A DNA stretch of 62,410 nucleotides, the filler included. It is 9 parts of 9 records of this genome, joined end to end, with 100 filler letters (N's around TTAATTAATTAA, not from the genome) between each part and the next. Parts side by side here need not be neighbours in the genome. Positions count along the whole stretch, not along the records: positions 14,100 to 23,700 come from SRR7504441_9130; 8 more parts are not named here. One strand, written 5' to 3'. Below are positions 1 to 40,542 of the stretch, one piece after another. The notes under the pieces are model-generated. The model was not told the origin of the DNA. It worked only from the letters and a program-made list of their open reading frames with translations, and made no database searches. How positions within the stretch are numbered: the stretch's first letter is position 1; every line of letters starts with the position of its first letter. The position numbers and the translations under genes are program-made.

Positions 1-494
1 CTTGGTCTAGGTTATATACACGCCCGAGGACTTCGGCGCGAGCGCATGTCTGCTCTATATGCGTCCTCATCCCTCCGTGATCTGGCACCTTGTAGAGGTT
101 CAGTCCAAAGTTGCCATAGTTGTGAGCGCCCAATGCCCTCAGCATCGTCAGCTTGGACGAAGCGAGCGGCGAAACAGATGGGCACTGAGCGGGATTGATC
201 ATGAAAGGAATCATGCGATCGGTGCCACGGGTCCGCCCTAGAGCAGCATGACTGCCTGATATGAGTGGAAACTGGAAAGCGGTATCCGTACTTGGGGGTA
301 GAATTATCTGGGTGGCCAGCGGGTGGTCTACGTGGTCTAGTGGCTAGCTGCGGGGTGGTCAACGCCGCACCACTCCGGTGACTGCCCGCGCGCCGCCTGC
401 TTCGAATCTCGACTGCCCGGCCGCGCCGCCTTCCCGAGAACAATTTGCAAGGCAAAGCCGGCGCCGCCCCGCGGTCACCAAAAGTCCTCGGGAG

Positions 495-3266: not shown

Positions 3267-3473
3267 TATCGATGTGATGTGCATTACTAATCACAACTAT
3301 GATCACGACGACAAATGCATGTACATATGATTGTGATGAAATCTAAAACCATGATCACGCGTATACAATGCTCATAGGAGTACTCTAGACCAATGATAAA
3401 AATGCAAGTAAATACAAGTACACATGTACTTGTACGAGTACGTCACACTACTCTCCGGCAGGCCTAGGAGTGG

Positions 3474-4475: not shown

Positions 4476-4583
4476 GCTGAGGTCGGTGGTACCTGGTACA
4501 CCACCGGTTCGGACCAACGGAGATCTCGAAATTGGCTCTACCTGCAGCTGGCAGACAACGCTTTATTAAATACGGTAGACTAC

Positions 4584-6389
4584 TTACCACCTACCGGTCC
4601 AAACCGAACTCTGACAGCCTCCATTCTCGACACATGCCTCAGTGGCCTTGAAGCAGCATTGTGCCTGCGTCTTATACCCAACGCTGGTGTTGGCCAACGA
4701 GCACCATCCTTGCGTATCGGCACAACCCGGCCCAATTGCAACACGAAACGGCGGAGCAGGGAGCGCTGTGAGCGACTCAAAGTCTCCAGCCGAACTGTAG
4801 AGCACGCACTGCGGAAAGCCTTGCCACGCATACCTGACCTCTGTAGCTTGCACTCCAGCCGTGGCCAGCCTGACAGTGCTGTCGCTGATCGTGAAGTTTG
4901 CTCTTGTCCAGCTGCCATCAGCAAGTCCCAGCTCGAATGGAGACTCGTGGCAGCCAAGCTCGCTGCCCGTGGTGTTGTAGGCTCGGGCAGGCGCAGCGTG
5001 CAAAGCGGAGGCGCCCGAGAACGGTAGTGCCAGTACCCGATCTGACTCGAGCACAGGGGCGGCACTGAGGACAGGACCGGTCGCGGTGACAGCAACATGA
5101 TACACATGTTTGAGTATCTGTAAGGCCAGTCTGTGCCCATCCGGCTGCTTGGCGGTGCTGTGGACGCCTCCGCCCGGAAGTCCAAGGTCGATTGCTGTGA
5201 TAAAACCAACGGGAGGTGCAAGCGCTAGAAATGACCGGCTGGCCTGCCGGATGTAGGCCCAAACTTGGGCGTTGAGCGCCCTGGAAGGGTAATTGTCGCA
5301 TGCCGACAGCTCGACGTTGAAGAACGGAAGTTCCGGTGAATCGAACAACAATCGCCAGTCCTGCACGGCTGCGTGTATGCGGCATGCGTAGTTTGTGGGG
5401 CCTGCCAGACTGCCTTGGAACGTGTCCTGCCCGGCCCAATCATCAATCCCGGGCGAGCCCAGCGGCACCGTGTTGGACTCTCCCTGGTACCAGAGCATCG
5501 CCTTGAACCTCATCTTCCTTATCGGCCAGAGCATCCCGTTGTAATTACAAGAGCAAAGGTTGCCCGAGTTGCTCGAATTCATCCGGGCACAAGCAGCCGC
5601 CTCCCCATCCCCGGCCAGGCAAGGCCCGCAGCCGGCCGTGCCAGTCCCTGGGCAGCTGGCGAGCGCTGCGGGCGACATCCAGGCCTCGATCCGTGTGCCG
5701 CCCCAGGCTGCTTCGACAAGCCCTACCGGGACTCTGCTCTGCAGTGCTAACATCAGAGCCCGGCCCGTGGTGTAACAGACGGCAGAGAACTGGCCCAACT
5801 GGCTGGACATCCGGCCCCACGGGGCACCGCAGCGGTCGGTGCACCGGCCGGGCCTTCCAGCCCAATCGTGCTCCCAGTTGAGGCTCTCGATCGTATGGTT
5901 TGGCGAGGAGTAATGGTCCACCCGCATCACCCTAATCAGCCGCCCCAGAAGATCCGACTCGGCCAGCAGGGCCGAGCCGTTCGCCACTCCGGCCAGCGGG
6001 AGCTCCATGTTCGACTGGCCCGAGCACAATATGACGTCCCCAAACGCCACGTCCAGCAGGCTCACCCCGGCGCCCGAGCTCGAGTTCACGTGCACCGAGT
6101 AGCCGACGCCCGGGAGCTGGGCGGGCAGCTGGACGCGCCACTCGCCGCCTGGCCCGTCGGCCCGGGCGGCCGCTCTGGCAGTGATCTGGCCGGCCGCGTC
6201 GGCCACCGTCACATGGAGCTCGGCTGCCCGGGCCTCCCCGAGGCCCCACAGGGTAGCGTTGGCCCGGTCGAGCACCATGCCGTCCGAGCACGCCCCGCCG
6301 CACAGCTGCAGCAGCTTCTCCCCGGATGTCGGCCGGGTCAACGCAGCCGACACTGCCGCGAGCAGCACGAAGCTCCTCCCGCTGACCAT
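4584..6389 (-). CDS. Secreted sialate O-acetylesterase (SASA/SGNH family)
   Basis: Signal peptide. FGDVILCSGQSNM, WGGTRIEAW, LWYQGESN, VRYAW. Intronless. Confidence 0.9.
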   Translation of the reverse strand: MVSGRSFVLLAAVSAALTRPTSGEKLLQLCGGACSDGMVLDRANATLWGLGEARAAELHVTVADAAGQITARAAARADGPGGEWRVQLPAQLPGVGYSVHVNSSSGAGVSLLDVAFGDVILCSGQSNMELPLAGVANGSALLAESDLLGRLIRVMRVDHYSSPNHTIESLNWEHDWAGRPGRCTDRCGAPWGRMSSQLGQFSAVCYTTGRALMLALQSRVPVGLVEAAWGGTRIEAWMSPAALASCPGTGTAGCGPCLAGDGEAAACARMNSSNSGNLCSCNYNGMLWPIRKMRFKAMLWYQGESNTVPLGSPGIDDWAGQDTFQGSLAGPTNYACRIHAAVQDWRLLFDSPELPFFNVELSACDNYPSRALNAQVWAYIRQASRSFLALAPPVGFITAIDLGLPGGGVHSTAKQPDGHRLALQILKHVYHVAVTATGPVLSAAPVLESDRVLALPFSGASALHAAPARAYNTTGSELGCHESPFELGLADGSWTRANFTISDSTVRLATAGVQATEVRYAWQGFPQCVLYSSAGDFESLTALPAPPFRVAIGPGCADTQGWCSLANTSVGYKTQAQCCFKATEACVENGGCQSSVWTGRW

Positions 6390-6435
6390 CTCACCAGCCA
6401 GCTGCCAGCGTTTTTATGATCTTTTTTATTTTTGG

Positions 6436-6441
6436 CAACGG
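6436..6441. promoter_or_regulatory. YAACGG motif in T-rich bidirectional promoter (representative copy)
   Basis: CAACGG in the 116-bp gap between divergent ATGs 6389 and 6506. The same motif recurs in about 12 other upstream gaps (see findings). Confidence 0.55.
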
Positions 6442-6505
6442 ACGATTTTTCTGTTATTTTTCAGTTATCCACCAAGTCTGCTTCCCGCTCGATCCTCTGT
6501 GCGCA

Positions 6506-7080
6506 ATGGTAGCTCTCCCTCCATTTTAGCGCGGGCTGATACCACCGGGGCCGGGGGCGTGTCCGAGGGGCATGTGTACACCCGAAAGATAGATCTTCCT
6601 TGTGCCTCTACCCCGTGCTTGGCATCCCCTCTGCCACGCCCGCCTTGAGCTTGATCATGACTTGTCTCGCAGGCTTTCGTCCCCTACTCTGCAGGCTACG
6701 GCTACCCCTACGGCTACCCCGGCGCTTACGGCCCGTACGGCCCTTCGCTCGAGGAGGTCAAGAAGATCCGTGAGGCCGAGGAGAAGGCCTTCAAGGATGC
6801 CGAGGCCAAGCGTCTCGAGCTGATCGAGGCCGAGAAGAAGCAATACGAGGAGTACGTCGCCGCCCAGAAGAAGGCCGTCGAGGATGCCGTTGCCAAGGAG
6901 AAGGAGTTCTACGAGAAGGAGCGTGAGCTAGTCAAGAAGCTCGGAGGATACCCGTACGCCTTCGGCGGCGCCTACGGCTACGGATACCCTGGCTACTCCG
7001 CCGGGTACTCCGCTGGCCACCCATACGGCGCTGGCTACTACGGTGCCCGTGCTGGCTACGGCTACCCGTACCGCTTCTAA
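6506..7080 (+). CDS. 136-aa tripartite protein: Gly/Tyr/Pro-rich ends flanking an E/K/A-rich helix (absent from ORF track)
   Basis: ATG-only exon 1 (6506-6508), GT-AG intron 6509-6672, exon 2 6673-7080 ending TAA. Reads MAFVPYSAGYGYPYGYPGAYGPYGPSLEEVKKIREAEEK...GYGYPYRF. Extreme TAC/AAG/GAG codon bias. Confidence 0.85.
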
Positions 7081-7265
7081 GCGGCCATTGCGATCCGATC
7101 CAAAGGTGTGAAACCATATCAAGATCGAGAGAAGTCGACCCACCTTGGGGAGATGAGCAATGTTCTTATTAATTATTATGTAGATGTCCTTCTAACAAAA
7201 CCTACCGAGAAATAAACACAGAGGAAAAGTAATTGCACATGGTCGCTTTATGATTGGTTTCATAT

Positions 7266-9455
7266 TCAATAGGTGACGATGACGTAGATGCTCGCCATGA
7301 TGACCGGTTCAGCTTGTTGCCAGGCACTTGCCGGTCCTGGGTCCGGAGCACTCCCATTCCACAAGCCGATGTAAGACAAGCCGTTTGGACCGACCAGCGC
7401 CGCCTTGGTCACGTCGGTCTGCCATAGCGTCACGGGGTGCCCGTTGCACCAGCCGTCTCGGCCGTAGAGCCAGGTTCCATACTCGTTTGGCACAACCCCA
7501 GACGAGACATACTCGGTGCAACCGAGTTGTTGGTTGGTCGCAGGCAGCGAGTTATTCTTGACAAACTTGTATCCATTCAGAGTGAAGACGTGCGTCGTGG
7601 CACAAAACTCACCGCATCCGTGCTGATCATTCCCGTGGCCCGTTATGTACGCAGCCAGCTGCACCCGGCCAGGCGTTTGACTCAAATTGAAACTGAAAGC
7701 TGGGAACCGCTGGCTGTAGCTTTGGTTGAAGAACACCCAGCGGAAGACGGCAGCTATTCCTCCAGATTCGGTGGTGGTTCCGATCCACGGAGTCAGCACA
7801 GAAGAAACTACTGAAGGCCCTAGTTGACGGCGAAGTGATAGCGTGACCAGCCAAGGAATCGCACCCTGGTTGCCTGCCCACGGTGCGCTGAAGGCTGTTA
7901 AATTGCACTGACCGGCCGGGCTGGTTTGGAGCAGCCCCGCGATGGGAGTGATGTCAGTGAGCCAATGGCCCTCGCTCCGACCAAAGCTGGTCATCCACCG
8001 GCCGAGCTCGGGACCAGACTGGGCATCGCAGAAGGAGCCTTCGGTGCAGCAGCTGCGCAGGGTGACGATGTGGTCCCACTGGGCGCAGCTCTTATCTGTC
8101 AAACCGGCACAGGAGATCTGCATGTCCAGGAATAACCTTTGCGTGCTATGAATCTGGAGCTCTGCCTGCGGTATCTTGGCCCATGGGCCACACCCGTACG
8201 GCGAGGCTCCATAGCAGTTACCAGATGCAGGCCGTAAGTGCTGCTTGCTGAACACTTGCACGGCAGAAGGCAGCTGCTCGATCCTGCTGCGCAGCTGATC
8301 CAGATACTGCAGGCCCTCAGCCGCCCATCGAAGGAAGCCCATATCGGGGTACAGCTTTGCCGACTTATCGCCCGGGTTGCCATCAACCTCACCAGCCCCG
8401 AGTCCGCTCCCGCCCCAAGACTCGGCGAGTGTCCCATCTGCCGCGATAGCAAAGTCTGTCCCATCAGCCTTGCCCGTGACGAACTCTACTCTAGCCTTAC
8501 CTTGCCCAATCACCCGCTGCAGCCACGCCCCTGCGCTGGCAGTTATCATCGTCAGTGGCAGCTGCGCCGCGGAGCTGCACTCGGCCCCGTTGCAACTGAG
8601 TGCATACAGCGGGCCTGCTGCGACTAGTACGAGAGCACTTGCGTTAACCAAGAGAGCGACTCGGACTTTCTGCCAGGCGTCGCAGCTCGGACTGTCCGGG
8701 CCCACGGCAACAACTCCAGTGTGATTCCCGGCCGGGTAGCCCGCGCAAGGGTCGGGCACCCAGATCAGCTCTAGAGACCGGTTGTGGAGCACGCCCGACG
8801 GGTCCTCGCTCCAGCCTAGCCAGTCGTACTGTGCGTCCAGCCGAGCTAGGCCCACCGGGCGACCGGCCCCGCGGATGAGCATCTGGTCCCGGGTGGTGCT
8901 CCATTCTGCGAGCAGTGTGGCCACCCAGCCAGTCGGTGGTTGCAGTCCAAAGTGGAGCCTCTTGCGCGCCCTGGCCCGGGCCGCGGTGCCGATTCCAAGC
9001 TGGAGCATTCGCAGCTCCATTTGCTCAGCTAGCTGATGCACCGACGGCTGGGGCTCGTCGCAGGGTCCCGGCGAGGAGCAGTTCTGCCCCGGGATGAAGA
9101 TGTGGTCACTATTCACGGTGCCCGCCGCCAGCCCGGTTAGCAGCCCATCCCAGGCCTGTGGCCGGGTCCACAGGCTGAGGCTGAAGCCGCTCCGACCGTC
9201 CAGCACGTTGAACACCGCCGGCCGGGGATGGGCGCCGGCTACGAAGCGCCCGGCGAGCGTAGCCAGGCTGAGCGGTGGGGCCGGGGCACCTGGGAGCAGC
9301 CGAGGCGGCGGCTGCGGCGGGGGAGTGGCAGTCCAGGGGTAGGTCCGCGGGGCTGGACGCGGTCGAAGGTGGCCCGCAGCCGGCAGGAGCCCGAGGGCTG
9401 GAGCTACCACGGCGCAGGCGAGCAGCGCACTCCAGTGACTCCACCCTCGCTTCAT
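7266..9455 (-). CDS. Secreted protein with peptide-N-glycosidase F C-terminal-like domain
   Basis: Signal peptide from MKRGW. ELGRWMTSF, ITGHG...GCGEFC, GTWLYGRDGWCNG. Intronless. Confidence 0.8.
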   Translation of the reverse strand: MKRGWSHWSALLACAVVAPALGLLPAAGHLRPRPAPRTYPWTATPPPQPPPRLLPGAPAPPLSLATLAGRFVAGAHPRPAVFNVLDGRSGFSLSLWTRPQAWDGLLTGLAAGTVNSDHIFIPGQNCSSPGPCDEPQPSVHQLAEQMELRMLQLGIGTAARARARKRLHFGLQPPTGWVATLLAEWSTTRDQMLIRGAGRPVGLARLDAQYDWLGWSEDPSGVLHNRSLELIWVPDPCAGYPAGNHTGVVAVGPDSPSCDAWQKVRVALLVNASALVLVAAGPLYALSCNGAECSSAAQLPLTMITASAGAWLQRVIGQGKARVEFVTGKADGTDFAIAADGTLAESWGGSGLGAGEVDGNPGDKSAKLYPDMGFLRWAAEGLQYLDQLRSRIEQLPSAVQVFSKQHLRPASGNCYGASPYGCGPWAKIPQAELQIHSTQRLFLDMQISCAGLTDKSCAQWDHIVTLRSCCTEGSFCDAQSGPELGRWMTSFGRSEGHWLTDITPIAGLLQTSPAGQCNLTAFSAPWAGNQGAIPWLVTLSLRRQLGPSVVSSVLTPWIGTTTESGGIAAVFRWVFFNQSYSQRFPAFSFNLSQTPGRVQLAAYITGHGNDQHGCGEFCATTHVFTLNGYKFVKNNSLPATNQQLGCTEYVSSGVVPNEYGTWLYGRDGWCNGHPVTLWQTDVTKAALVGPNGLSYIGLWNGSAPDPGPASAWQQAEPVIMASIYVIVTY

Positions 9456-9743
9456 TTTTGTGTTTTGTGTCATAAAGGGCGTCATGATGCAGGGTGGGCG
9501 GCCCATCGCTAAATGCTTGCGTCAATCTACCCGTACTGCATTCTACTAAGCGCTTTAGTGTTTAACAATTCATGAGTATATTCGTATATTCTGCAACCCC
9601 TCCGTGAGAGTCCGAGATTCGTTTGGTGTTACTGTACGTACGTGTGGACCGAATATCAAAGTATCATCAATCAGGACACCCAGCACTTGGGCCGGGGTCG
9701 GGTGGAGTCCGGCCAAGAGGGGTTGGCACACACCCATAGCGGT

Positions 9744-10568
9744 CTAGGCCTGACTTGTCTTGGTCCATGCGTTCCCGTCGGGCCAAGTAATCTTCCCATT
9801 AGCATAATTGCCCGTCAAGCTCGCAGGCCCGCCCTTCGGCCGGAAGTCCACCTCGAATCCGCCGTCCGCGGACAGGCGGCCCTGAAGCTTGAAGAAGCTT
9901 TTGCCGTCATCAGTCCCCACAATCTGCCCGCTGCTAGCTACCATCCGCAGCCCAGCCAGCTCGACGCCCTTGACAAGGTGGTTCGGGTCAACGTAAACCC
10001 CCGCGATCCCGTCCACCGATTCCGTCGGCCCGGTTGGCCGCGCTCGGCGACGCACGCTGGCGGATCGCCGGCGGGCGGTCGGTCGTACGGGAGGCCCTGG
10101 CGGGGGGTTGCCGCCGGCCTTGACGTCGGCGCACTTGGCCGCAGTGATCGACTGGCACTTCTTCGATGTGATCCTACACATCTGGCGGGCCTTCTCTAGC
10201 CGACCGGTGTACTTGGGCCGACGGTTCTCATCTGGACAGCCAGCCCGCTGCTCGGTCGGGGGGTGCTGGGCGTCGCCGACTTTAAAATATCCGTCGGTAG
10301 TCCACAGCTCGACTTCAGATGGTTTGCACTCGACCAGTCTGCCCAGGTTGGTCTCGGGGGGCGGCCGGGTCTTCTGGGCTTCGGAGAAGGCGTCGAGAGA
10401 AGGCACGTAACTTTGGCAGTCCTTGGTCTTCTGGAAGACGCACACGTCGCACGCGATCCGGTCGCGAGTGCTGATGTACTTGGTGCTAGAGCTGGCCATC
10501 TCCTCCCAGCTGCTCTCCTGGCCCGCCGCAGCGCCCAGCAGCGCGAACAGCAGCGCGAGCCACCTCAT
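9744..10568 (-). CDS. Secreted Cys-containing protein with C-terminal YVDPNH...VDFxPKGGP...WPDGNxW domain, function unknown
   Basis: Signal peptide MRWLALLFALLG; single ORF; the C-terminal motif set resembles uncharacterised algal/protist proteins. Confidence 0.7.
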   Translation of the reverse strand: MRWLALLFALLGAAAGQESSWEEMASSSTKYISTRDRIACDVCVFQKTKDCQSYVPSLDAFSEAQKTRPPPETNLGRLVECKPSEVELWTTDGYFKVGDAQHPPTEQRAGCPDENRRPKYTGRLEKARQMCRITSKKCQSITAAKCADVKAGGNPPPGPPVRPTARRRSASVRRRARPTGPTESVDGIAGVYVDPNHLVKGVELAGLRMVASSGQIVGTDDGKSFFKLQGRLSADGGFEVDFRPKGGPASLTGNYANGKITWPDGNAWTKTSQA

Positions 10569-10714
10569 AGTAGGCTTCGATCCGCGAGGCCGATGCTGAT
10601 GAGAAGGGAAAGAAAGTGAGGTTTTCACTGTTTTCATTGGCGGCTGTCCATGGGCATGGCAATCAGGCTTAGACATGGCTCGTCAATCAAGAATGATCTA
10701 GAGGTATGGAGTAG

Positions 10715-12097
10715 CTATAGGGTATCGACAGTGAACAGCCGCGGGTTGTGCGCCTCCTTTTGTGCCCGGTGGCGGCTCATTTCAATCCGTTTGAGAGCCG
10801 CCGCACCGGTCTTCCTGAGCATCTCCGCCACACCATCCCGCTTGGGCGGTGTCTTAGCCCGGATCGCGGCCACTCCACGTGCCCTCAGCTCAGCAGCAGC
10901 CGAATTGCCAGCCACTGGCTCAGCCTTCCCGAAACAGTCAAGTTGTTGGCTGATCAAGGAGGATTGATGCGCTAGCTGGGCTTCCAACCGCCTCACTCGC
11001 CCATCCCGCTCGTGTGCCTCTGCCATCCTCGCCGCCCCCGCCTGCTGCAGCTGCGCCACACTGCTAGCCAGCTCAGTTTCCCGCGCCCGCGACTGGGCCA
11101 GCTGCTGCTGCAGCTCCGCCACAACTGCCCGATCCGACCCGTCGACGCTCAACTCGCCTGACTGGCCGCATCCCGCACTCCGAAGCTGGTCCAGCTCCTC
11201 CTCCAGCACCCGAAACCGCCGCTCGAGCGCTTGGTCGCTGCCTGCACCACCATTGCACAGCTCACTCCGGCTCTCGCTGGCAACTGACACTCCCCCCGGC
11301 TTCTGGGGCCGGCACTCAGCGACCGCCTGGCTCAGAGACCGCCTGGCCCAAAGCTCGGCCGCCGCTTGGTGCTCCTCAGCTTGCTCGGCCAGCAAGATGT
11401 GTGCCTGCTGCAGTTGATTCTCCAGTGCAGTCACCCGCTCCTTGCCCTCTTCGCTATCCTGACTCATCTGCGCCTCCTGCCGCTTCAGCTGATCCTCCAG
11501 TGCACGCTCTCTCTGTGCTGCTGTCTGACGCTCTGCCGTGAGCGCCACTACTTTACTCTGTAGCAGCTTGATCTCACCCTCAAGATCCGTCACCGCCTCG
11601 TCCTTGCGGCTGGCTGCCTGCCGCTCCCGGGCCAGTTGCTGCTCCAGCCGCTCAACCTCGCCCTCCAGCGCAGCCACGCGCTTGTTGCTGCTCAAGATTC
11701 GGCCCGCAACACTCTGCTCCACCGAACTGCCACACTCGCGCCGCTCCGACAGCCGACGCACCTCGCCCTCGGCCCGTTCCAGCGCCTTCTGGAGCTCCGA
11801 CTGGCTCACGAGGCTGCTCCGGGCGAGCACCAGCTCCCGCTGGCTCAAGGCTAACTCGGCCCGCGCCAGCCGCAGCTGCTCGGCCTCGCTCTCGCGCAGC
11901 TTGGTCTCTAGGTGCTCCAGGCGCCGGGTCGGCGCCGGGCTAGCCGGGCTGGCTGGCTGGCGGGGCGCGGGCCCGGGCGAGACGGCCAGCGCCCGCTGGT
12001 TTCGGCGGAGCTGGATTGCCTCGAGGTGCAGGGCCAGCTCCTGGCCCGCCGGGCTCGCCCAGGTCGGCGGGGGGCTGTACCCGGCGATCGGCGTCAT
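10715..12097 (-). CDS. Coiled-coil protein, unknown function
   Basis: 460-aa E/L/Q/R heptad-rich ORF. Confidence 0.7.
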   Translation of the reverse strand: MTPIAGYSPPPTWASPAGQELALHLEAIQLRRNQRALAVSPGPAPRQPASPASPAPTRRLEHLETKLRESEAEQLRLARAELALSQRELVLARSSLVSQSELQKALERAEGEVRRLSERRECGSSVEQSVAGRILSSNKRVAALEGEVERLEQQLARERQAASRKDEAVTDLEGEIKLLQSKVVALTAERQTAAQRERALEDQLKRQEAQMSQDSEEGKERVTALENQLQQAHILLAEQAEEHQAAAELWARRSLSQAVAECRPQKPGGVSVASESRSELCNGGAGSDQALERRFRVLEEELDQLRSAGCGQSGELSVDGSDRAVVAELQQQLAQSRARETELASSVAQLQQAGAARMAEAHERDGRVRRLEAQLAHQSSLISQQLDCFGKAEPVAGNSAAAELRARGVAAIRAKTPPKRDGVAEMLRKTGAAALKRIEMSRHRAQKEAHNPRLFTVDTL

Positions 12098-12352
12098 GAT
12101 TGCTGATGGTGCCGGCGGGAGCGCCGCGGCGGAAGCTGCTGGGCGACATGGAGCGGGCCTGCAGCCGGGACGGCGATCTTCGCACAGAGTACCACTGCAC
12201 TGTTGACGCCGATGCTCTCGAAGGCGAGACCGATCGCATTCTGCTCAAATCGTGCCAGATCTGAATTCCGTTAAAATCATCGCCCCGGCTCGGCAACTTG
12301 GCGGGACCGTAGCACGCCCAGGCCCCGAGCCGATCGGTTGTAATCCGAGCGC

Positions 12353-13999
12353 ATGGCCCTGCCCGGCTCCCAGACCGGCGGTCCAAGCGACCCGCCGACC
12401 ACTCGGGTGCACGTCAAGCTCGACTTCAGCAACGGGGTGCAGGAGGTACCTGCAACGGCCCGGCCAGCCGCCCAGCCAGCCGGCCAGATCAACTATGCCC
12501 AGCTGCTCAGCGGGCCGCCCCCGGCCGAGCCGGCCGCCGACGAGGCCGAGTCCGGGTCGTCCGGACCGATGGAAGAATACGACGATGCCGACTCGTTCAT
12601 TGACGACGAGGGTCTGAACGAGCAGGCCAGGGACCCGCGCCCGGGCCAGGCGCTCTTCCGGGTGAGTGCCATGTCCGACGAGGAGATCGCCGTCACGTGA
12701 CCCGCGCCCCCCGGGCCGGGCTGAACCAGCGGGCAGCGCCCCGCCAGCTCCAGGACCGGCCCCGGCCAAGAAGAAGCACCGGAAGCAGCGCGTGCTCACA
12801 GACGTGTGCCACCGGGGCGGCGAGAGGCTGACGGCTGGGTGCAGCTGGAGGACCCGGAACTGACTGCGGCGCTTGAAGAGCTGCAGGCGAACGGTGGGCG
12901 ACTCCCGAGTCCGCGGGCGAGCCGGGCCGGACAGTGGGCTCCAAGAAGCGGATGACAGCTGAGCTGGACCCGATGCTGCTCCGGTGGCCCGTGGGCAGGC
13001 CGGGGTACTCAGCCCGGTGGCAGCTGCGCCGGGGCTGCGAGGGCGGCGCATCCTGACGGGCAGTTCGGGGACGACGCGCGAGAGTTGCTGCAACAGGCGA
13101 TGCCGTTTGCCACTCTCAAGGCCATCAGCAGCAAGGTGCTCCGACTGGAGACCGAGGCCAAGATCCGGGTGCGCTACCCAGCTGTGGTCGGCTCATCAGC
13201 TGAGTATGTGGCAGGGTTACAATACTCATATAACTGAGAATATGGCCATGCTGCGCGTAGGGATCAGCGCAGCCGTGGCCCAGGCGGCTGAGGCTCAGGC
13301 GGCGGCCTGCGTACCGGTCACCCCGGCCGCGGAGGGGCAGACAGTGGGCGAAATCATCCAGACAAGCGCGCCGGGCAAGGCACGGTTCGTGTGGTCTCTA
13401 GAGGTTGAGGAAGCCTGGTACGAGGTGGCTCACGCCGAGCTCCAGCTGATCGAGATGACTGTCTCTCGTAAATCGGGCGGCAAGCTCTCGGCCAAGCGGG
13501 AGGAGCGTGAAAAGCTGCGAGAGAAGGAGGAGAAAGATATGAGTAGGGCGATGTATAAGCGGCACTGTGAGGTCTGGCAGTCCGAGGGGGCCGCCCACGT
13601 TGAGTGGACCGAGCTGCGTCAGGTGCGGCCTGGACGGCTTGTGTGAGCCTCGGTCAGGCGTACGGGCGTGTCCATAGGAGACAGGCCAAGGCCGCGGCCA
13701 AGCCTGCTGCCGGCAAGACCGCCAAACCGAAGACCACCGCACCTCCCAAGTCGCCCATTGCGCCAGTTGCCAAGAAGGTGGCCGACCCAAATCAACCCGC
13801 GGACCCGGAGCCGGGCGACAAGCGGAAACGGGCCCCTGCTGCCTTACCGGCTGCGAAGAAACCGAATAAGTACACGTGGCATGCTCATGAGGCGGCAGCG
13901 GCCGAGCCGGAGCCGGCGGCCGAGGAGGCCGAGCCGTTGATGAGCTGTGAGTTTGACCCTGTTCCGGACCAGATTCTGCAGCGCTGGCAGAGGGCTGCA
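12353..13999 (+). CDS. HPC2/ubinuclein-like histone chaperone subunit (HUN motif), 3' truncated by contig end
   Basis: EEYDDADSFIDDEGL motif. Six GT-AG introns of 35-46 nt restore one frame; basic C-terminal region. Confidence 0.7.
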
Positions 14000-14099
14000 N
14001 NNNNNNNNNNNNNNNNNNNNNNNNNNNNNNNNNNNNNNNNNNNTTAATTAATTAANNNNNNNNNNNNNNNNNNNNNNNNNNNNNNNNNNNNNNNNNNNN
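14000..14099. other. Artificial contig linker
   Basis: N44-TTAATTAATTAA-N44, giving stops in all six frames. Confidence 0.98.
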
Positions 14100-15720
14100 G
14101 TCGTGGGCAACGAGTCTTGCACAATCTATCGAGATGAAGAAAGCCCAGTCCTCGTCTGTTATCTGTTTGGCGTTTCGAAGCACCATAAAGGCAATCACAG
14201 ATGCAAACAGAATCTTGTCTTTCTCAAACAAGCCACGGCATATATTGAAGTAGATTTCTCGCGTGATGACGGTGATGATGGTTTCAACCCGAATAGCCAC
14301 ATCAGTGTTGGCTTCCGAGTTTGAGATATTGAATGCAAATAGCTTTGAAAAGTATTGGAGCGAATACTGATACATGTAGTCGATCTTACCCATGTCGGCT
14401 ATTGCAAAGTACAGCACTGAGCCTCGGCAGGCAGCAGGCCTGTACAGCTCACGCGTCTCAGCAATCAATTCATTTGTTTTTTCTGCCTAATCCACCGATT
14501 AGCCTGGCTTTGTGGGTCAATCATTAGCGGCCATCGCCTTCCCCATTCCACAAACAACCCATTTTGAATTGATAACGCATCACTTGGAAGTCCAAATGAG
14601 TTCCATTCACGAATCTTAACTGGATCTCCAAGGCACTGCTCCAGCGAAAACTGGGCATCTACCTTAATACCTACTGCCTTACACCACGCTGTCCAGTCTG
14701 CTGCAAGATCAGCGCGGTATTCAAACGTAAACGCGCCAACATACGCAATCGCCGCAGCTGACAGCAAGATATTGCCAACAAGATTTTCTCTGTCCTTGTC
14801 GAGTTGAGTGCATGTCTCTTCCCACCGCTTCTAGCGCTGAGGCCAATGAGGCCTGCTGCAAGATGTGCGTCAAGATCCATGGGTCAGTTGGACTCAAATC
14901 TCAGCAGTTTTTGGATCAACTTGGGCGGTATAACCATACCACGCCGACTTCTTACCTTGAGCTCATTAACCTCTACCAAGGCATGCTCACGAAGCAGTCT
15001 GATGTGTTGGGCACTAAGCAGAACAGACTGAGCGGCGGAGTGAAAAAGATGGTTGAGATCAATGGAAATGTCGCCGAGATGAAGATCACCCTGGCCGAGT
15101 TGCAGCCAGTGCTCGCTGAGTCTGCAAAAGAGACCGAGGCACTTCTAGAGAATGTCAAGAAGGAACAAGTGATCGCTGACGAGGCCAAGACCCAGTGTAA
15201 GAAGGACGAAGTTGAGTGCAACGAGATTGCAGCAGAAGCAAATGCTATTAAAATGGATGCCCAGAAAGATCTCGACGAGGCTCTCCCTGCCTTCAACTCG
15301 GCGGTGAAGGCGCTCAAATCTCTGTCCAAGGATGACATCAATACAGTCAAAACCTTCCCGGGCCACAGACAAGAGCGCATCCTCAGGCCAGGCAAAGAAC
15401 CAGTCGATGGTAGTACAGTTGACGAGAGATGGGAACATCCGGCATTGGGTCCGGAACTCATCACCCGACGGGCTCATCGTGAGCACCACGTGCAGATTCT
15501 GCCGGACCAAGTGGATGAAATGATCCCAGATCACCTGACTCGCACTCCAGGTCACTTGGAACGTGTCTTTGAGCTTCTCGCAGAGCAGATTGTCAAACCA
15601 GTCGCAGTCAGATTGCTCGTTCAGTCGGTCTCGGAACACACGGGACATCTCGTGAGCCCACAGCTTGAGCAGCCGGTTAGTATCTGGCACTTCCTTGTTT
15701 GTGACGGTCAGGATTCCCCC
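14100..15720 (-). pseudogene. Rearranged 3' part of dynein heavy chain: five fragments, one inverted (14832-15358 on +)
   Basis: Fragments in dynein order: GIL...WAHEMSRVFRDRL; LHVVLTMSP...IDWFFAWPEDALLSVA; TTPTSYLELI...EALPA (plus strand); KRWEE...WPLMIDPQSQANRWI; RELYRPAA...YQYSL. Intervening domains are absent. May be an assembly or amplification chimera. Confidence 0.75.
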
Positions 15721-18700
15721 AGCGTGATCTCGAAGTATTGGATGATCTTAGCAATCAGCAGCTCCTCCAACTGCAGACCCTTGCCTGTGAGCTGATCCTC
15801 AATGGCAACCTGAAGGTTGCCATAGTCCACATTTGGGATCACTGCTCCAGGGAACAGGTCCTGGATGATTGCAAGGAACAATGGGACATCCTGGTAGAGG
15901 AACTTGGGAAGATTGGAGTCGCGCATGGCTCGAATCAGCACAATTTCTTCAGACAGTTGTGACTCTGATCGCTTGAGCTGGCCAGCCATCACAAGCACAG
16001 ACTTGACTGCACGCATCCCAAAGTCGTAGTGGTCTTGCTTGGAGAGCTGCTCTGAGGACAGCCGGTACAGCTGCACCATTTTGGTGGAAAGCTGAGTTGC
16101 TGTCATGAAACCCTCAGAGAAAAGAATAATCTCCGCAATGAGCCCGTAATCGGGCACCATCATTGCCACTGGTCGGAAGAGTGCCTTGAGATTGTCTGGC
16201 AGCTCTGTCCGCCCAGCATACCCCGGATTCATTGTGATGAACACCCCAACCCCTGAGTTGAGCGGAATGTCGCGACCTTCAAACATGAATGTCTCGACCT
16301 GGTCATTCAGAGCATTGATGATGCTCAACATCATTTGCGCAATCACTGACAGCACCTCGATATCAATCCGATTGAACTCATCAAAACAAGCCCACGCTCC
16401 ACACTGCACGAGACCAGAAAAGAACCGGCCCATGATCAGGTAATCAAGCCCATCTGAGCAGTTGAAAACCACGCACTGCCTTGCGAGCGCCTTAGCCAAG
16501 TCCTTTGTGGTCTCGGTTTTGCCAGTGCCAGCAGGGCCCTGGGGAGCGCCTCCAAGCCGCACATGCAGGGCCCCAGTCAGCGTCATGTAGCACTTGTCGG
16601 TGAGCGGTGTGATCACTAGCCGGGCGCTGTTGCCTAGGTACTCATAGCCATACAAGAACTCTGTATTGGTCTGACGGAGCACGCAGTCGTCAGTGTCGGC
16701 TCCGCGAAGCCCGTTCTCTAGGTGGTCTTGCCAGTAATATCTGAGCTGCTTGGTCCACTCAAAGTCAGTTATGCTACCACAGTTAGCGTCGATCATGTTC
16801 TCAACGACCGTGCGAGCATGCACATCAATCACAATCAGAGCTCCCATACACTTTCGCTCCAGCTTGGTGAGTTTGCCCAGCACAAGCTCAACCATCCCCT
16901 GCAGCTGATTATTGCTGAACTCCAAATGTTTCTTCATTGCATCCTTGTCCTCTCCGGACTCAATCTGGTTGAGTGCTTTCTCGCTGTTTGCTGTCCAGTA
17001 GACTTGCTCAATAGCAATGATTGCCATTGCAGGAGACTCAAAGAACCACTCTGCCCGCCGGTCTTCAGCGTAAGTGTCCAGGCACTTCTTTGTGTGATCC
17101 CACAGCGAGAGCCGCATCTCCTTCTCTACATCTGTCAGCCAAAACTCGACAGAGCCGGCTGTCTGGAGTACCCTGGTGAATGCAACTTTCTCACCTTCTC
17201 CTGACACCATACCCTCGATCGACAGAGGCTTGACCTCGTCGTTGTCATCCTCGTCTAGCATGTCCTCCTCAGTCTTTTCTGCCGATTCGTCAGCACCAAA
17301 TTTGAGTGACTTGATAGAGTCGAAGCACTTGACCATGTGAGGTTGCACTGAGAGAGGGTTGCGAGTCTCCGACAGAATTTGGAGCAACTCGTCGTTCGAC
17401 AGGAAGTAAAACCGGGCAAATGAGGCCCTCTTGGTTTCTAGATAGGCTTCAAGAGACTTTTGGACTTCATCAAGGACCACGTTAGCGTTCTTGAACATGT
17501 CAAGAACTCCAGGCATGTCGCACACACCAATCGCCAGCCTGTGCTCATTCACCTTGCGCATATGCTTCTTCCAGGCAGAATCAACCTTTGCAAACTTAGC
17601 AGCCTCTAGAGGAAGCTGCTTCTTGATGTCGTCGGCGCAGAAGATGTTCTCGAGATAGAGCCAAGCTTTCTGGCACAGGATCCACTCTTCCAGGATGTCA
17701 GAGAGAAGCCGGAGCTGCGAGTCCCACAGGTTGACTTTGGTCTGGATCCCACCCACAAACCGCGAACCAAGGATGGTCTGGAGCGTCACCTGGTTGTCCT
17801 CGAGAAGCATTGAGACTTCCTCCACTGAGCCCAGAATAAACAGATCTCCACCATCCCGATAATCTGTCACCTCAAACTCCTGAGTCTGCCAGCCCTCTTC
17901 GATCTTATCCAGTGTCATTGACAATGCGTATTCGCCGCCTGCAATTGCACAGATCTCGTTGATCTTCTCCTTGTGCTCCTCGTCAAAGATCCCCCATCGC
18001 CACAGATTGTCCAGATTGAATGCTGGCAGGGTGTTGTCTGAATCAAACAGATGCTGTCTCTGAAAGATGGTGAAGATCTGCATCCACGGCTTTGCAGACT
18101 TCATTGAGTCTTGACCAAGCTCAATCGCCAGCGGCAGAATTGCCTTGAAATCAAACATGATCTGGAACAGATCATCCACCACTGCATCTGTAGTGTCCTG
18201 TTTCTTAAATTTCCGCTGAAGGTCCATGCAGCTCTTGAGCATTGCGGCGGCATCCTGCTCCATCTGGGCCACGTCGAGGTCCACGAAGTCCGACGCCTCC
18301 AGCCACTGGCTGTTCTTCTCTGTCCACTGGTCTTTTAGGCTCCACACAGAGTAACGCACGTCAAACTTCTCCCTCGCAGCGTCCAGATGAGTAAAGAAAT
18401 CGCGATTCTGCTCCTCGGCCTCAGGCTGCTCCTTCTCCTCCTCGGCCTCAGGCTGCTCCTCAGCATCCTCCTTCTCCTCCTCCTCCTTCGCCTTGGCAGC
18501 CTGGGCCTCAGGGTCGGCGGCCAGCTTAGCGGCTTCAATTGCTGCTTGCTGTCGCAGGATGTTCTGCTCGAGGGTCTTCTGGTAGGCCTCAAACATGTCG
18601 CACTTCTCTTGGAGCGCCTTGAGCTGCTTCTCCATCTCGTCCAGATCATCAAGCACCTCCTGGCTCGACTTGACCTTTGGATCATTGTACTGCTCAGCCT

Positions 18701-21003
18701 CGAGCTCGGTGAGCACTCGATCGAGCGCGTTGTTGTTCTCGTCGATCCGCTTCTCGAGCTTGTCCTGGTTAGCATTCTGTTGGTTTACTACCCGCTCGTT
18801 GGCTGCGATCAAGCCGACCTCGAACGCCTTGACTTCCGAGAGCATGTTGTCCCTCTCGACCTCGATTGATGCATCGATCTTGACGTCGAACTTGAGCAGC
18901 ATCTCATATAGCTCCTGCACCTCCAAGTTGTCCTGCTCGAGCCTTGGCCGAACCGCCTCCATCTCACCGATTGCAGTCACGTACTCCACAAAGTGCTGCA
19001 GGCCCTCCGGGGCCTTGTTGAGCACGCTCACCTTCTCATGCAGCTCGGAGGCGAAGATCACGCACTTGCTCACAAAGTTCTTGAGCAAAAGCCCCTTGAG
19101 GTCGCCCATGATGTTGTCCGACACGCTCTGCAGGTCCTGCGCGAGTCCCTCGGTCTTGACCTTGAAGATCCCCTTGAAGTCAAGCTTCTGCATAGTCTCA
19201 ATTTGCGTCAGCCACTCGCCCACTTCGTTCATCCGAGTCCTGAACGCCACAAACTGCGGCTTCTTGGCCGCAAACGTCTCGATCCGCCACTGCGGATCAA
19301 ACTGGGTATCATAGATCTCTCTGTAGCTCTCAAACGCGAGCGCGTAGTCCTCGATCACTTTATAATTATTGTCGAGCACCGTGTTCATCCCATCCTTGGT
19401 GTACATGAACACGGTATTGCTCTTGATCAGCTGACCCACGTTCGGGATCTGAGCTTTCACTCCGTGGAAGTGCAGCTTCAGCGCCGGCAGCTGGACCACA
19501 CGGGTCACGTGCTGCACGTTTTGCACGATGTCCTCGACCATCTTGTCCACTGCGTCTTTGATATTGTCCAGCCCCGGGTCGAAGTACGACACTCCACCCT
19601 CACCAAACTGGATCGAGACTTCAAACAGTGACTTGTTCCGCTGCTGTAGCTCGTGCATCTCTGTGATTGTCTCCAAAAACTTCTGCATGGTTGACACTGT
19701 GTGCATCACCAATGTATCCACTACCATCATATCCACTAGTCGGATGAAGTCGTCCATCATCAACAGCTCGGCCTCTGCCTTGTGCACCGCCGCAAGCCGG
19801 GCCGCCTTCTCTATCCGGATCTGATACATCGACTTGCTCTTCTCAGACCCGGTCTCCTCTGCGTCCAGCACGTGCTCATCCGGCAGGTGCGACCGCTGGG
19901 TCAGGTCGTCCGCCACGTGGTCGATGCTCTTGAGCAGGTGCGTGCAGACCTGAGTCTCAAACTCGGTCAGTGCCAGTTGTCGCTGCTCCTCCGACTTCTT
20001 CCGGAATTCCTGCAGTTCGTATATCTTGGGCTTGATCATCAGCTTTGTCTGCTCCATCTCGCGGCACTGCCGGGTGATGTCTACCAGCGTGGGCGCGAAC
20101 GAGGGCCGGGCCAGGTAGAGGTGCTTGAACAGCTTTGACCGCTGGTTGAGGAAGGTCCTGTATTTGACATTGTGGAACCAAATCGAAAAGAGCTTGGTGC
20201 CACAGAAGCGCTTGAAGAACTGGATGGAACGGAGCACGTCGAACAGGGTGGACTTGCGGATCCACTCAGCCAGAGCGATGAAGTTGGACGGGCGCGATGG
20301 GTCCACGTGCACCAGCCCTGAGAGCGACATCGTCCAATGCTGCGTGTGTGACACGTTCAGCTCGCGCCGCGACACCACCTGCCGCCCCGGCGCTCAAAAC
20401 ACACTGCACACTGGAGCGCGCTGACCTCCAGCGCGTAAGGATTGAACGGTTTGGCGTCCGAATCCGGTTCGCTGCGAGTGGTTGAGTGGCGGCCAGGCTG
20501 GCAGACCAACCGGATCAGATGCACAAACTTGATCGAAGTGTTCTGGCCGTGCTTGGCGAAGAACGCGATCGCCTCGGCGCTGGTGGTTATCTCGGGCAGC
20601 TCGTCTGAGTCTAGCCGTTGGAGCGAGCTGGTGGCTCCGGCACGCTGCCGCTCTGGTAACTCCTGTTTGGAAGGCATCTCGAAGTCGACGATGTCATTGT
20701 TCGAATACTGGAACAGCGAGCGCTTCGATTTGCCCTGCTTCAACGGCAGCAGCCTGCCCCACCGGTGAGCCCCAGCCCGGGTGCGCTCTGCTGACCTCTG
20801 CTGACCGCCGGTGCTGATCAGCCCCCTGCCAGGCCGCACGCTGGGTGACGGCGGCGAGGCCGAGCTGTCGAACCGAACCTGGCCCTACCGGCGGTGAGCG
20901 GTCAGGCCGGGCGGGTGCGTGGGGCGGGGGGTGGGAGCAGCGGGCGGCGGCACACCTGGGGGCGGGTGGGCGGGGGGTTTGAGTCGGGTTGTTGCCGGGA
21001 CAT
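15708..21003 (-). CDS. Axonemal inner-arm dynein heavy chain (DNAH6-like): tail, linker and AAA1
   Basis: ATG 21003; introns 20885-20955, 20754-20795, 20472-20510 and 20379-20425; then a 1556-aa exon with FARFYFLSNDELL, GPAGTGKT, CFDEFNR and YDFGMR. The frame ends at a deletion junction near 15718. Confidence 0.92.
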
Positions 21004-21272
21004 CTTAGCGCGGTCGATGGCCGGGAGGACAGACGAGGCGGAGGGTGAGAGCCCAGGCAGCCCCGGCCCGGCCGACATCCTCTCTAGCCGGCTGCTGCTC
21101 CGCTCACCAGCCGCTGCTCACCGGCATCCGAAGACCCAATCTATCTTGGCTTATTATAGGACGCCCCAACGGACAAAGATACGCGGTGAAGGATGGACTC
21201 CCCTTGGAAGAGGGCATCCATCCTCTGCTGAGCCGAGCAGTCAAGGCAGTGGGCCGTCCGGCGGGGCCGGCG

Positions 21273-21667
21273 ATGTCGCACTACAGACCGGTCACTCCGA
21301 TGTTCGCCGACGGCGAATCCAAGGCTCGCGCCCCCCCGGGCGCCCCCGACGGTCGGGTCAGGGCTGGAATCAGCTGCTCAACCACCATGGATGGGACTTC
21401 AAGTCGGTCACCCGGAGCCCGGCCTCCCCGCCCAAGGCGCCCCCCCAGCCCCGGGCCCCGGCCCAACAGTCGGCAGTTGCGCGCGCTCAACCTGCCGCCG
21501 CCGGTGCCGTCTAAGGTCTACAGTGACTCCTCGCTGGAACTGAGTAGCCGGGCTGGGCCGGCCGGGGCGGACGGCCGGGGGCAGGGCACTCGCACGGGCT
21601 GGTCTTGCAGTTCGGGGCGCTCGATGCCATCAGGCACTGGACTCCGGAGATGCTAATCGAGAAGTAA
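21273..21667 (+). CDS. TIP41-like protein, N-terminal half
   Basis: Introns 21324-21361 (GC-AG), 21437-21476 (GC-AG, probable) and 21544-21584 give ...HGWDFKSVTRSP...LNLPPPVPSKVYSDSSLELRHSHGLVLQFGALDAIRHW, which matches the TIP41 N-terminal pattern (GW...LPEMxF..S.L.L.H..G..I.FNALDAL). Confidence 0.7.
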
Positions 21668-21670
21668 CCC

Positions 21671-22458
21671 CCGAATATTATTTTAGTGACATATAGTGAC
21701 TTTGTAGTGACATTCGGCGCGGCTGATCATGGTGGGCAGGCCTTCGGCCGAGGGCGAGTACTTGGGCGACGGCGCCAGCCGCACCTCCGTGTCCATCAGC
21801 ATGACCTGCCGCCGCTCCGGACCAAGCAACCAGGCAACCCACCGGCTCCCCGAACTCAAATGCGTACCGGGTGTCCACCAGCCGGGCCTGGGACCAGCTC
21901 AGGCAGGCGAGGAGGCCGGTGCCACCCCCTGGCGAGAGCACTGGAGCAGCCGGAGCAGCAGCAGCAGCCGCTCGGGCATCACCTGCGGCGGTCGTTAGAT
22001 TGCGGGCGGAGTGGCGGCTCGCCCGGATCTTGACCGCCAGCCGGGTCTGGCCCTGCTCGCATGTGTGCTCGTAGAGCGTCACGTCGTCATAGAACATAAC
22101 TTGGTCTTTGGATGTGTACCTGCACCCAAAGCGTTGGAGCGGGCGGCTGCACGGCGGGCGGACCGATCCATCGGCAACTCCTGCTCGGTCTCGCTCAGCA
22201 CCACCTGCGCCGCCGTTTCATTCCACTGGAATTACTACAAGTAGGTGCTAGTGTTCACTAGTGTACACATAGAGAGAGAGCATTGGTCTAGTTAGCATCA
22301 GCGGTGGTATGGACCGGATTGCCGCCCATGGTGAATGCGGGAGGCCCACCCTCCGCAGCGGCCGACTCAGGGTTCGAGGACCACATGTGCGCAGCCGGCG
22401 GTTGGGAGGCGAGCCCCGGGGCAGATACAAGAACAGCCCTGCAGTGTCTACTATTCGG
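21671..22458. repeat. Inverted repeat CCGAATA (21671-21677) / TATTCGG (22452-22458) bounding the inverted TIP41 segment
   Basis: 7/7 perfect; 9/10 when extended (CCGAATATTA vs CCGAATAGTA). Confidence 0.65.
21683..22438 (-). CDS. TIP41-like protein, C-terminal half (divergent)
   Basis: Acceptor CTGCAG|G at 22439/22438 and an in-frame ATG at 22386. Five introns, including 22226-22314 and GC-AG 21983-22022, give QVMFYDDVTLYE...LAVKIRVMPERLLLLLR...ARLVDTRYAFEF, ending TAA at 21683. Confidence 0.8.
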
Positions 22459-22674
22459 AGACAAGTGCAAGTCGTGATCTGAGCATGCACCGTTCTCAGC
22501 AGCACGATTATTAAACCAATGCGTGACCGGCGTTGACGAACAGTTCGAGATTGATCGATCAGAGTCTGGTAACCGTCAATAAATCTAACATCAACCCTTT
22601 ATAATCCCTCATGCAACGGATTAATATCGAAATGAATATCGGAATGATTGAGCCAATAGTTCGTCTGGCGAGTG

Positions 22675-23700
22675 TCAGACAGGCCCCTCCCTGCTCTTGG
22701 GCGAGATCGAGCTCTCGGCCCGCCGGGCGCTCCGGTCGGCGCTCTGCTCGGCCACTGGCTGGCCGGGACCCACTCGGACTGGGACTGAGTCACTCACCTG
22801 GCCGCCCCGGCTGGCCGCCTGTTATTACTAAGCTGCTACCGCGCCGGATTGGCTCGCGAGCACCAACGAGCACAGACCCGACATCCCGGCTGCCCGAGCG
22901 CTCAGCCAGCCACCAGCCTGCTCCAGCTACCCGGCACCCGGAAGCTGCACTGGCCGCGCGCGCACTCTGCCCCGCTGAACAGCTCCAGCTCGCCCGGCCC
23001 GTTGGTCAGCTTGGCTCGGACAGGCCCGACAGCGCCCATCGCAACCCAGCGGAGCTCGACCTGGCTGCCGGGGGCGAGCGGAGCGTGCGGCCACGGGGCG
23101 GATATGGCAAGCATCAGGGGACCGCGGCTGCCGAGCAGGTGGCGGAGGTCGGACTCGATGCGGCCGACGTGGTCTGGGATCACGGGCTGGTGTGCCATCG
23201 CCGGCTGGCGGAGCACCACTGCTGGCTGCTGTGCCATCACAGGCTGGGGCTGCAGCATCACAGGCTGGGGCTGCATCACAGGCTGGGGCTGCAGCACCAC
23301 AGGCTGGGGCCGCGCCATCGCAGGCGCCACCACCACTTGCGGGTCCGGTGCGGGGCTGGGCGAGTGGCTCCGCAGCTCGACTGGACTGGCTGGCCGCAGC
23401 TGGACCGGGCTGGGCGTGCCGGCCGGGCTGGGGGTGCGCCGGCTCAGCCTGGCCTGCTCCTCCAGCTCTGCTCTTCCGTCCTCGCTCTCCCGCAGCCGGG
23501 CCGCCAGCCGGGCCCGATCTGCCCGGAGCCCCGCGCTCTCCTTGCTGCCCTCACCGATCGCCCCCACCCGCCGGGCGTTCACCTGAGCGCGGCCGACCGC
23601 CGACGCTCCTTGGTGAGCGCCGCCTGAGTCATCGCAGCCCGCCGCTCCACCAGCCCGCGTTGCTCCTCGGACCGCTCGGCCTGCCCATGCTGAGCCGGCC
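22675..23700 (-). CDS. Hypothetical coiled-coil protein with QPQPV(M/V) repeats, 5' truncated
   Basis: ORF 22902-23582 plus two 41-42-nt GT-AG introns leading to TGA at 22675. Confidence 0.55.
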
Positions 23701-23800
23701 NNNNNNNNNNNNNNNNNNNNNNNNNNNNNNNNNNNNNNNNNNNNTTAATTAATTAANNNNNNNNNNNNNNNNNNNNNNNNNNNNNNNNNNNNNNNNNNNN
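23701..23800. other. Artificial contig linker
   Basis: N44-TTAATTAATTAA-N44. Confidence 0.98.
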
Positions 23801-30181: not shown

Positions 30182-30281
30182 NNNNNNNNNNNNNNNNNNN
30201 NNNNNNNNNNNNNNNNNNNNNNNNNTTAATTAATTAANNNNNNNNNNNNNNNNNNNNNNNNNNNNNNNNNNNNNNNNNNNN
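30182..30281. other. Artificial contig linker
   Basis: N44-TTAATTAATTAA-N44. Confidence 0.98.
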
Positions 30282-36634: not shown

Positions 36635-36734
36635 NNNNNNNNNNNNNNNNNNNNNNNNNNNNNNNNNNNNNNNNNNNNTTAATTAATTAANNNNNNNNNN
36701 NNNNNNNNNNNNNNNNNNNNNNNNNNNNNNNNNN
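36635..36734. other. Artificial contig linker
   Basis: N44-TTAATTAATTAA-N44. Confidence 0.98.
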
Positions 36735-40442: not shown

Positions 40443-40542
40443 NNNNNNNNNNNNNNNNNNNNNNNNNNNNNNNNNNNNNNNNNNNNTTAATTAATTAANN
40501 NNNNNNNNNNNNNNNNNNNNNNNNNNNNNNNNNNNNNNNNNN
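40443..40542. other. Artificial contig linker
   Basis: N44-TTAATTAATTAA-N44. Confidence 0.98.

Follow-up and report, generated by a model that had tools for sequence, protein, structure and literature searches.

Genes whose parts are transcribed apart have been described in Giardia, which joins separately transcribed pieces of Hsp90 and of dynein heavy chains (PMC8494341, PMC5224939) and in which the paired loci are complementary to each other (PMC5224939). Flipped and skipped segments are also a product of DNA amplification: a review of amplification chimeras names the inverted type as the commonest, puts most overlaps at 5-8 nt (peak at 7), describes the two partners as reverse complements of each other on one strand, usually less than 10 kb apart, and notes that direct chimeras lack the sequence between their partners (PMC9984789). 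In amplified single cells, chimeras in up to 70% of long reads and thousands of misassemblies are reported in a preprint (10.64898/2026.06.11.730069). Here, we analyze a stretch of 62,410 nucleotides, filler included (hereafter the window), in which a TIP41-like gene lies in two halves on opposite strands of a single contig (SRR7504441_9130, window positions 14100-23700). We report that both halves belong to one gene and that a dynein heavy chain gene in the same contig is rearranged as well, and we propose that the split of TIP41 is probably not a biological feature.

Results

The two halves are parts of one TIP41 orthologue, arranged tail to tail, each intact and phase-matched to the other. 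Single exons were weak queries: Pfam, queried with single-exon frames, matched TIP41 in one of seven, the exon at 22119-22023, which scored 19.0 bits (E 1.1e-3), short of the 25 bits that the model demands. Three single frames gave no match to TIPRL in the PDB (0 of 3), single exons being too short, and two word-indexed protein searches with the minus-strand frame returned nothing, one being swamped by low-complexity words and the other yielding no three-word candidate. A HMMER search of the minus-strand frame against 1.84 billion representatives found two proteins at E ≤ 0.001. Three relatives, P0002 (238 aa), P0005 from its cluster, and P0001, were run against the Pfam TIP41 model and scored above its threshold (3 of 3, 64-72 bits, E 1e-17 to 7e-20), and P0002 matches human TIPRL structures over residues 48-195 (E 5e-11). 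When P0002 was searched against the window by tblastn, residues 1-35 fell at 21273-21415 (+) and residues 123-191 at 22121-21840 (-), with no further copy of either half in the window. After splicing, the plus-strand half (91 aa) aligns to residues 1-77 of P0002-P0004 with E 1e-22 to 3e-23 and 44-46% identity, and the minus-strand half (169 aa) to residues 115-200 with E of about 3e-33 and 59% identity. Joined through either donor, the halves make a product of 249-259 aa that is 41% identical end to end to P0002-P0004 and aligns to their residues 1-200 with E 1e-53 to 1e-54 (162-165 bits). As the joined models align over their full length to proteins above the Pfam threshold, the gene is a member of the TIP41 family. 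A single continuous TIP41 polypeptide is absent from the contig as assembled and appears only after an in silico flip of the block. The TIP41 sequences of the relatives sit on contigs of 925-965 nt (935-965 nt for members of the P0002 cluster), which we infer to be transcripts.

The gene model, derived from protein alignment alone, comprises four plus-strand exons, six minus-strand exons, and eight introns, with all frames intact (Table 1). The N-half starts with an ATG at 21273 (+) and runs to a donor AA/GTAAC (slashes mark exon boundaries) whose G is at 21664, its frame being closed by its own TAA at 21665-21667; an alternative donor, AG/GC, lies at 21633/21634. On the minus strand, the C-half begins behind an acceptor CTGCAG/G (22444-22439) with its first exon base at 22438, contains an in-frame ATG at 22386, and ends at a stop codon at 21685-21683, leaving 15 nt (21668-21682) between the two stop codons. 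The phases of AA/GT at 21663/21664 and AG/G at 22439/22438 match, giving an in-frame join. GC donors occur in three of the eight model introns (AAG/GC at 21324 and 21437 on the plus strand, CGG/GC at 22022 on the minus strand), and alternative GC donors would shorten the 89-nt C-half intron to 77 or 71 nt. Ten introns could be measured, the eight of the TIP41 model and two dynein introns read by eye (39 and 47 nt); nine of them are 37-47 nt long, the tenth is 89 nt, and most are GC-rich. A flip exactly at the flanking repeat rebuilds an intron of 27 nt, or of 57 nt with the GC donor, and breakpoints a few bases outside the repeat would rebuild one of about 40 nt, so the length of the rebuilt intron decides nothing.

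This anatomy agrees with that of a first-pass annotation made from the letters alone, which had placed the N-half on the plus strand and the C-half on the minus strand, tail to tail; had recognized the phase-2 donors (AA/GTAAC at 21664, AG/GC at 21634) and acceptor (CTGCAG/G at 22439) and their in-frame join; had noted stop codons only 15 bp apart, CCGAATA and TATTCGG at the flanks, and the ATG at 22386; and had described intact frames and introns in both halves. The sequence, tblastn, the spliced gene model, and the spliced matches bear out all of this, and the plus-strand product does match the TIP41 N-terminus, on which that annotation had staked its interpretation. Correct as it was on the gene itself, it overlooked both the dynein rearrangement in the same contig and the fact that the window is made of joined contigs. 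The AT-rich stretch from 22459 to about 22680, recognized by its composition, is the sole basis for the 228-bp spacer that it proposed. Beside the left junction, at 21681-21713, a TAGTGACAT-like unit of 10-12 nt is repeated three times in tandem. These repeats lie in an AT-rich patch that overlaps the last codons of the C-half, and the C-terminus of the relatives differs there.

The window consists of nine contigs of 3.7-14 kb set end to end via eight linkers; these are separate contigs, and no inference is therefore drawn across the linker points. The TIP41 halves and the dynein heavy chain gene share one of them (14100-23700, 9.6 kb, closed by the linker at 23701-23800), and all the anomalies that we found are confined to it. 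The Pfam domains of the dynein gene run on the minus strand from AAA_6 1-310 directly to AAA_lid_1 37-91 and then to AAA_8 137-205, continue on the plus strand with AAA_8 209-257 and MT 2-113, and return to the minus strand with MT 295-336 and AAA_9. Among 2688 candidate relatives scored, the best was P0007 (4103 aa, 71% identical), and the contig was mapped by tblastn of P0007 and P0008 and of the relatives' metagenome contigs L001 and L002. In P0007 numbering, residues 88-~1718, ~2266-2328, 2513-~2570, 2930-3051, and 3225-3349 are kept, and residues 2580-2755, a block of 176 residues, are kept but inverted. Residues ~1719-2265, 2329-2512, 2756-2929, and 3052-3224 are neither in the contig nor in the whole window, amounting to four losses of about 547, 184, 174, and 173 residues (~0.5-1.6 kb each). 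The three smaller losses (173-184 residues) are close in size to the inverted block (176), and the largest (~547) is about three times that size. The losses take away AAA2, AAA3, most of AAA4 (its core), and the microtubule-binding domain; deprived of all these parts, a dynein motor cannot function.

The dynein junctions lie near 15715, 15533, 15358-15361, 14830, and ~14495. The pieces of the gene are joined directly, the possible overlap being 0-6 nt; intron remnants are absent, and one joint is out of frame. Every kept piece is nonetheless an open frame, the largest being of 1561 codons and 61-85% identical to relatives. Among the relatives, L001 (76-85% identity) and L002 carry uninterrupted frames of 2839 and 2842 codons over the dynein region. 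Slow decay would leave stops and frameshifts; as there are none, all the lesions must be very recent indeed or else have a non-biological origin. The best named matches of the dynein come from oomycetes and other stramenopiles (~54-56%), and its closest relatives are environmental sequences. Its G+C content at third codon positions (GC3) is 0.72, against 0.60-0.81 in other genes. Along the gene, GC3 declines: it is 0.72 in the large 5' piece and 0.44 in the one after the inverted block (14465-14830, -), a drop that may be noise in short pieces. Other causes were considered and rejected: collapse of long repeats by the assembler, given that the P0007 residues flanking the four losses are dissimilar; gradual pseudogene decay, given that all kept frames are open; and a contig chimeric between two organisms, given that the dynein GC3 matches that of other genes and the lower total G+C stems from second codon positions.

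The repeat that flanks the TIP41 block has one arm, CCGAATA, at 21671-21677 and the other, TATTCGG, at 22452-22458, 781 nt apart. A 7-bp match was reached in 2.7% of shuffles when narrow stretches were allowed for the breakpoints and in 9.4% when these were wider; 73 of 1610 equally spaced pairs in the window also reach 7 bp, and the 2.4 kb around TIP41 hold 128 inverted pairs with a 7-nt seed. The repeat is thus only marginally unusual, near chance, and is weak evidence for anything. A DNA inversion switch would be expected to have flanking repeats clearly longer than chance, which these 7 bp are not, and no recombinase family was found among the scanned frames of the 9.6-kb contig, which are part of its frames.

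Outside this contig the window looks ordinary. Thirty long frames were scanned, 29 in the other eight contigs and the thirtieth in the TIP41 contig. Sixteen of the 29 matched a Pfam family, most domains being covered fully or nearly so, with two partial matches (FMO-like, 2-215 of 532; N-glycanase_N, 109-168 of 177), and among the same 29 no Pfam family was divided between strands. A seemingly truncated DHHC gene in another contig was rejected as a further case, the rest of its domain lying in another frame after a small intron. The contigs at 1-13999 and 36735-58343 carry, by Pfam, PNGase F-like, glutaminase A, and SASA esterase genes, together with a GH catalytic core with BNR repeats and a ricin-type lectin domain, and the genes outside the TIP41 contig point to a glycan-digesting heterotroph. 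In the TIP41 contig itself, an open frame at 22905-23699 (-) matches no Pfam family and reaches the contig end; within it, three 39-nt repeats at 23185-23301 encode a motif rich in proline, glutamine, valine, and methionine. Three metagenome runs share 5-7% of 385 sampled words with the window, no RNA run being among those listed, and near-identical contig fragments were found in two seawater runs (3 records, 0-1 mismatch). A metagenome scan with the minus-strand TIP41 frame gave 593 pattern matches, none of them confirmed (0 of 593), and the species is apparently absent from the metagenome collection that was scanned.

Table 1. Positions of the TIP41-like gene, the dynein heavy chain gene, and the contig linkers, counted along the window
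Feature	Position	Strand	Basis or details
TIP41-like N-terminal half	21273-21663	+	tblastn of P0002; spliced 91-aa product against P0002-P0004
N-half exons	21273-21323, 21362-21436, 21477-21543, 21585-21663 (to 21633 with GC donor)	+	
N-half introns	21324-21361 (38 nt, GC-AG), 21437-21476 (40 nt, GC-AG), 21544-21584 (41 nt, GT-AG)	+	
Left junction	21664-21682	+	Dangling donor, in-frame TAA, repeat arm, 5 nt before minus-strand stop
TIP41-like C-terminal half	21683-22438	-	Pfam on one exon; tblastn; intron enumeration; spliced 169 aa
C-half exons	22438-22315, 22225-22164, 22119-22023, 21982-21926, 21887-21843, 21805-21683	-	
C-half introns		-	89, 44, 40 (GC-AG), 38, and 37 nt
Right junction	22439-22458	-	Dangling acceptor and repeat arm, then AT-rich spacer
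Dynein heavy chain (inner-arm type, axonemal) with internal losses	14100-20827	-	Pfam; tblastn of relatives
Second inverted block, 528 bp, dynein residues ~2580-2755 (end of AAA4, start of stalk)	14830-15357	+	Pfam; tblastn
Contig linkers, N44-TTAATTAATTAA-N44, identical at all 8 sites	14000-14099, 23701-23800, 30182-30281, 36635-36734		
Further N44-TTAATTAATTAA-N44 linkers	40443-40542, 47517-47616, 52899-52998, 58344-58443		

Discussion

With moderate confidence, we attribute the split of TIP41 to the way in which the contig came about and not to the organism's gene. Six or seven breakpoints fall within 9.6 kb. Some are skips that span 0.5-1.6 kb, the others strand switches whose overlap is 0-7 nt, and as this cluster comes without the decay that point mutations would bring, template-switch chimeras fit it better than biology does. 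CCGAATA and TATTCGG have the properties of a chimeric partner pair, an overlap within the 5-8 nt range and reverse complementarity at less than 10 kb, and the same molecule shows further skips and flips (four and one, respectively) at high base-level quality. We infer that the contig originated in vitro or in silico. It most likely stems either from chimeric molecules or reads that arose when a polymerase switched templates, as happens in whole-genome amplification, or from low-coverage islands that were wrongly joined. With template switching, synthesis along the plus strand would have reached CCGAATA in the TIP41 intron and then re-primed at the reverse-complementary TATTCGG some 780 nt downstream, so that the block was copied backwards; a second switch at the same repeat pair would have yielded the balanced-looking TIP41 flip, and the same process would have skipped the four dynein stretches and flipped one more.

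Several points weigh against an artefact. That the source DNA was amplified is an assumption, and a balanced flip requires two switches at one repeat pair, something seldom seen within a single chimeric molecule. Inverted duplications, the usual product of chimera formation, were not found in the window, where there are three weak inverted pairs, none of them at TIP41. The ends of the dynein inversion share no repeat, the best match of 5 bp being reached by 49% of shuffles, and both TIP41 breakpoints fall outside coding sequence. In short-read assembly, chimeric reads that are rare are usually outvoted. None of 14 short records (31-248 nt, from three metagenome runs) spans 21664-21682 or 22439-22458.

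Were the rearrangement real, we would think first of a one-off event that was not programmed, in which a recent break-and-rejoin or a replication template switch flipped about 0.8 kb of TIP41, from the intron to the 3' flank, and the dynein gene 6 kb away was deleted and flipped in the same event or a short series of events, both genes being knocked out; we regard this as possible but rather unlikely. The arrangement is, after all, present in the contig, and the first-pass annotation fairly argued that 7 bp alone cannot mislead a k-mer (de Bruijn) assembler, but its argument does not cover template-switch chimeras, whose overlap peaks at 7. Junction microhomology of 1-7 nt fits cellular end-joining or template switching equally well, the intact frames fit a very recent event, and the near-identical fragments in two seawater runs indicate that the organism exists in nature. 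Set against this, at least five gross lesions have accumulated with no frameshift or stop in the ~6 kb of dynein coding sequence that is kept, which demands either that gross lesions outpaced small mutations or that one catastrophe spread through the population, both of them rare, and a consensus metagenome assembly normally shows the majority, intact allele. The first-pass annotation had weighed a recent inversion or artefact beside a reversible switch, trans-splicing, and gene fission; the former fits the data, and for the others we find no support. Even taken together, a functional split, trans-splicing, and a switch appear very improbable to us. A functional fission, with convergent units giving two polypeptides that reassemble or a single trans-spliced mRNA as in Giardia, could explain why the donor and acceptor are intact and phase-matched and why all exons and introns of both halves are preserved, and an AT-rich region upstream of the minus-strand half together with the in-frame ATG at 22386 might serve its separate expression; moreover, the transcript-like contigs of the relatives cannot separate cis- from trans-splicing. 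It is nevertheless highly unlikely, since the intron halves are not complementary: their longest pairing-capable match is 6 nt, a length reached by 981 of 1000 shuffles, and their duplex energy is average (-52.2 versus -53.5 +/- 5.4), which leaves the earlier suggestion of trans-splicing unsupported. TIP41 is, furthermore, a single-domain fold, and the cut falls within residues 48-195 of P0002, the part alignable to TIPRL; with 15 nt between them, convergent transcripts would make long double-stranded RNA; and the dynein pieces abut without intron remnants, so their cause was not related to splicing and is probably the same for the TIP41 flip.

A reversible inversion, with the 0.8-kb block flipping between 7-bp repeats to turn TIP41 on and off, strikes us as scarcely credible. 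The exact inverted repeat does flank the block and a flip does restore an in-frame gene, but a 7-bp repeat is reached by 3-9% of controls, one orientation only has been seen, no recombinase family occurs among the contig frames scanned (not all of its frames), and the flipped-back intron, at 27 nt, falls below the norm of 37-47 nt, although the GC donor would make it 57 nt. We know of no such DNA inversion switch in eukaryotic nuclear genes. Programmed rearrangement, whereby the scrambled loci of a germline-like copy are put in order and filled in to make a somatic genome, as happens in some ciliates, is just as hard to credit. Kept and missing dynein segments do alternate, two genes have one inverted segment each, and the pieces are intact; however, the pieces abut directly without spacers or convincing pointer repeats, the window does not contain the missing dynein pieces, the other eight contigs appear ordinary, and a standard code, a GC-rich genome, and a stramenopile-like dynein do not point to a known scrambling group. 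We likewise give very little credence to the wider proposition that the rearrangements are real and that an uncultured marine flagellate has a TIP41 gene cut at an intron, with the halves, convergent and intact, expressed separately or joined in trans; the locus would then be one of clustered break-and-rejoin or a germline-type scrambled copy, and a natural case in which an inversion at an intron has split a eukaryotic gene in two.

Should the split prove real and both halves functional, it would show a small inversion dividing a gene at an intron, and trans-splicing outside Giardia would come up as a question; if it is real without such function, it is an ordinary gene-breaking rearrangement. 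Under the artefact that we favor, TIP41 in the organism would be a regulator of PP2A-family phosphatases encoded by one collinear gene of 10 exons and very short introns. Windows drawn from fragmentary environmental eukaryote assemblies may hold contigs with several strand switches and skips, each of which, viewed alone, resembles an elegant intragenic inversion, and comparing the neighboring genes with their relatives exposes them.

Comparison with known systems

Known members of the TIP41/TIPRL family (PF04176; human TIPRL structures 5D9G, 5W0W, and 5W0X), the nearest relatives included, are single polypeptides, and the joined halves align to these relatives end to end, whereas here the gene is cut after about 90 residues and the rest lies on the other strand. 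The split genes of Giardia (Hsp90 and dynein heavy chains beta and gamma) resemble this locus in having pieces that end in a donor or start at an acceptor, and dynein is involved in both. However, the Giardia pieces have complementary intron halves and extended splice motifs (PMC8494341, PMC5224939), whereas here the intron halves show no complementarity, the dynein joints have no splice signals, and the arrangement is known from DNA alone. Spontaneous inversions between short inverted repeats, or through replication template switching, offer the likeness of an intragenic flip by which a gene is broken yet intact in its parts while relatives remain collinear; in the present case, the block is one of 0.8 kb in a eukaryote and stands beside five more breakpoints. 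The typical product of multiple displacement amplification is an inverted duplication, whereas this contig has a single copy of each segment and a balanced TIP41 flip; in other respects, amplification chimeras share with this contig flipped and skipped segments over distances below 10 kb, a 7-nt overlap between reverse complements, several junctions per ~10 kb, and the combination of high base accuracy with structural errors.

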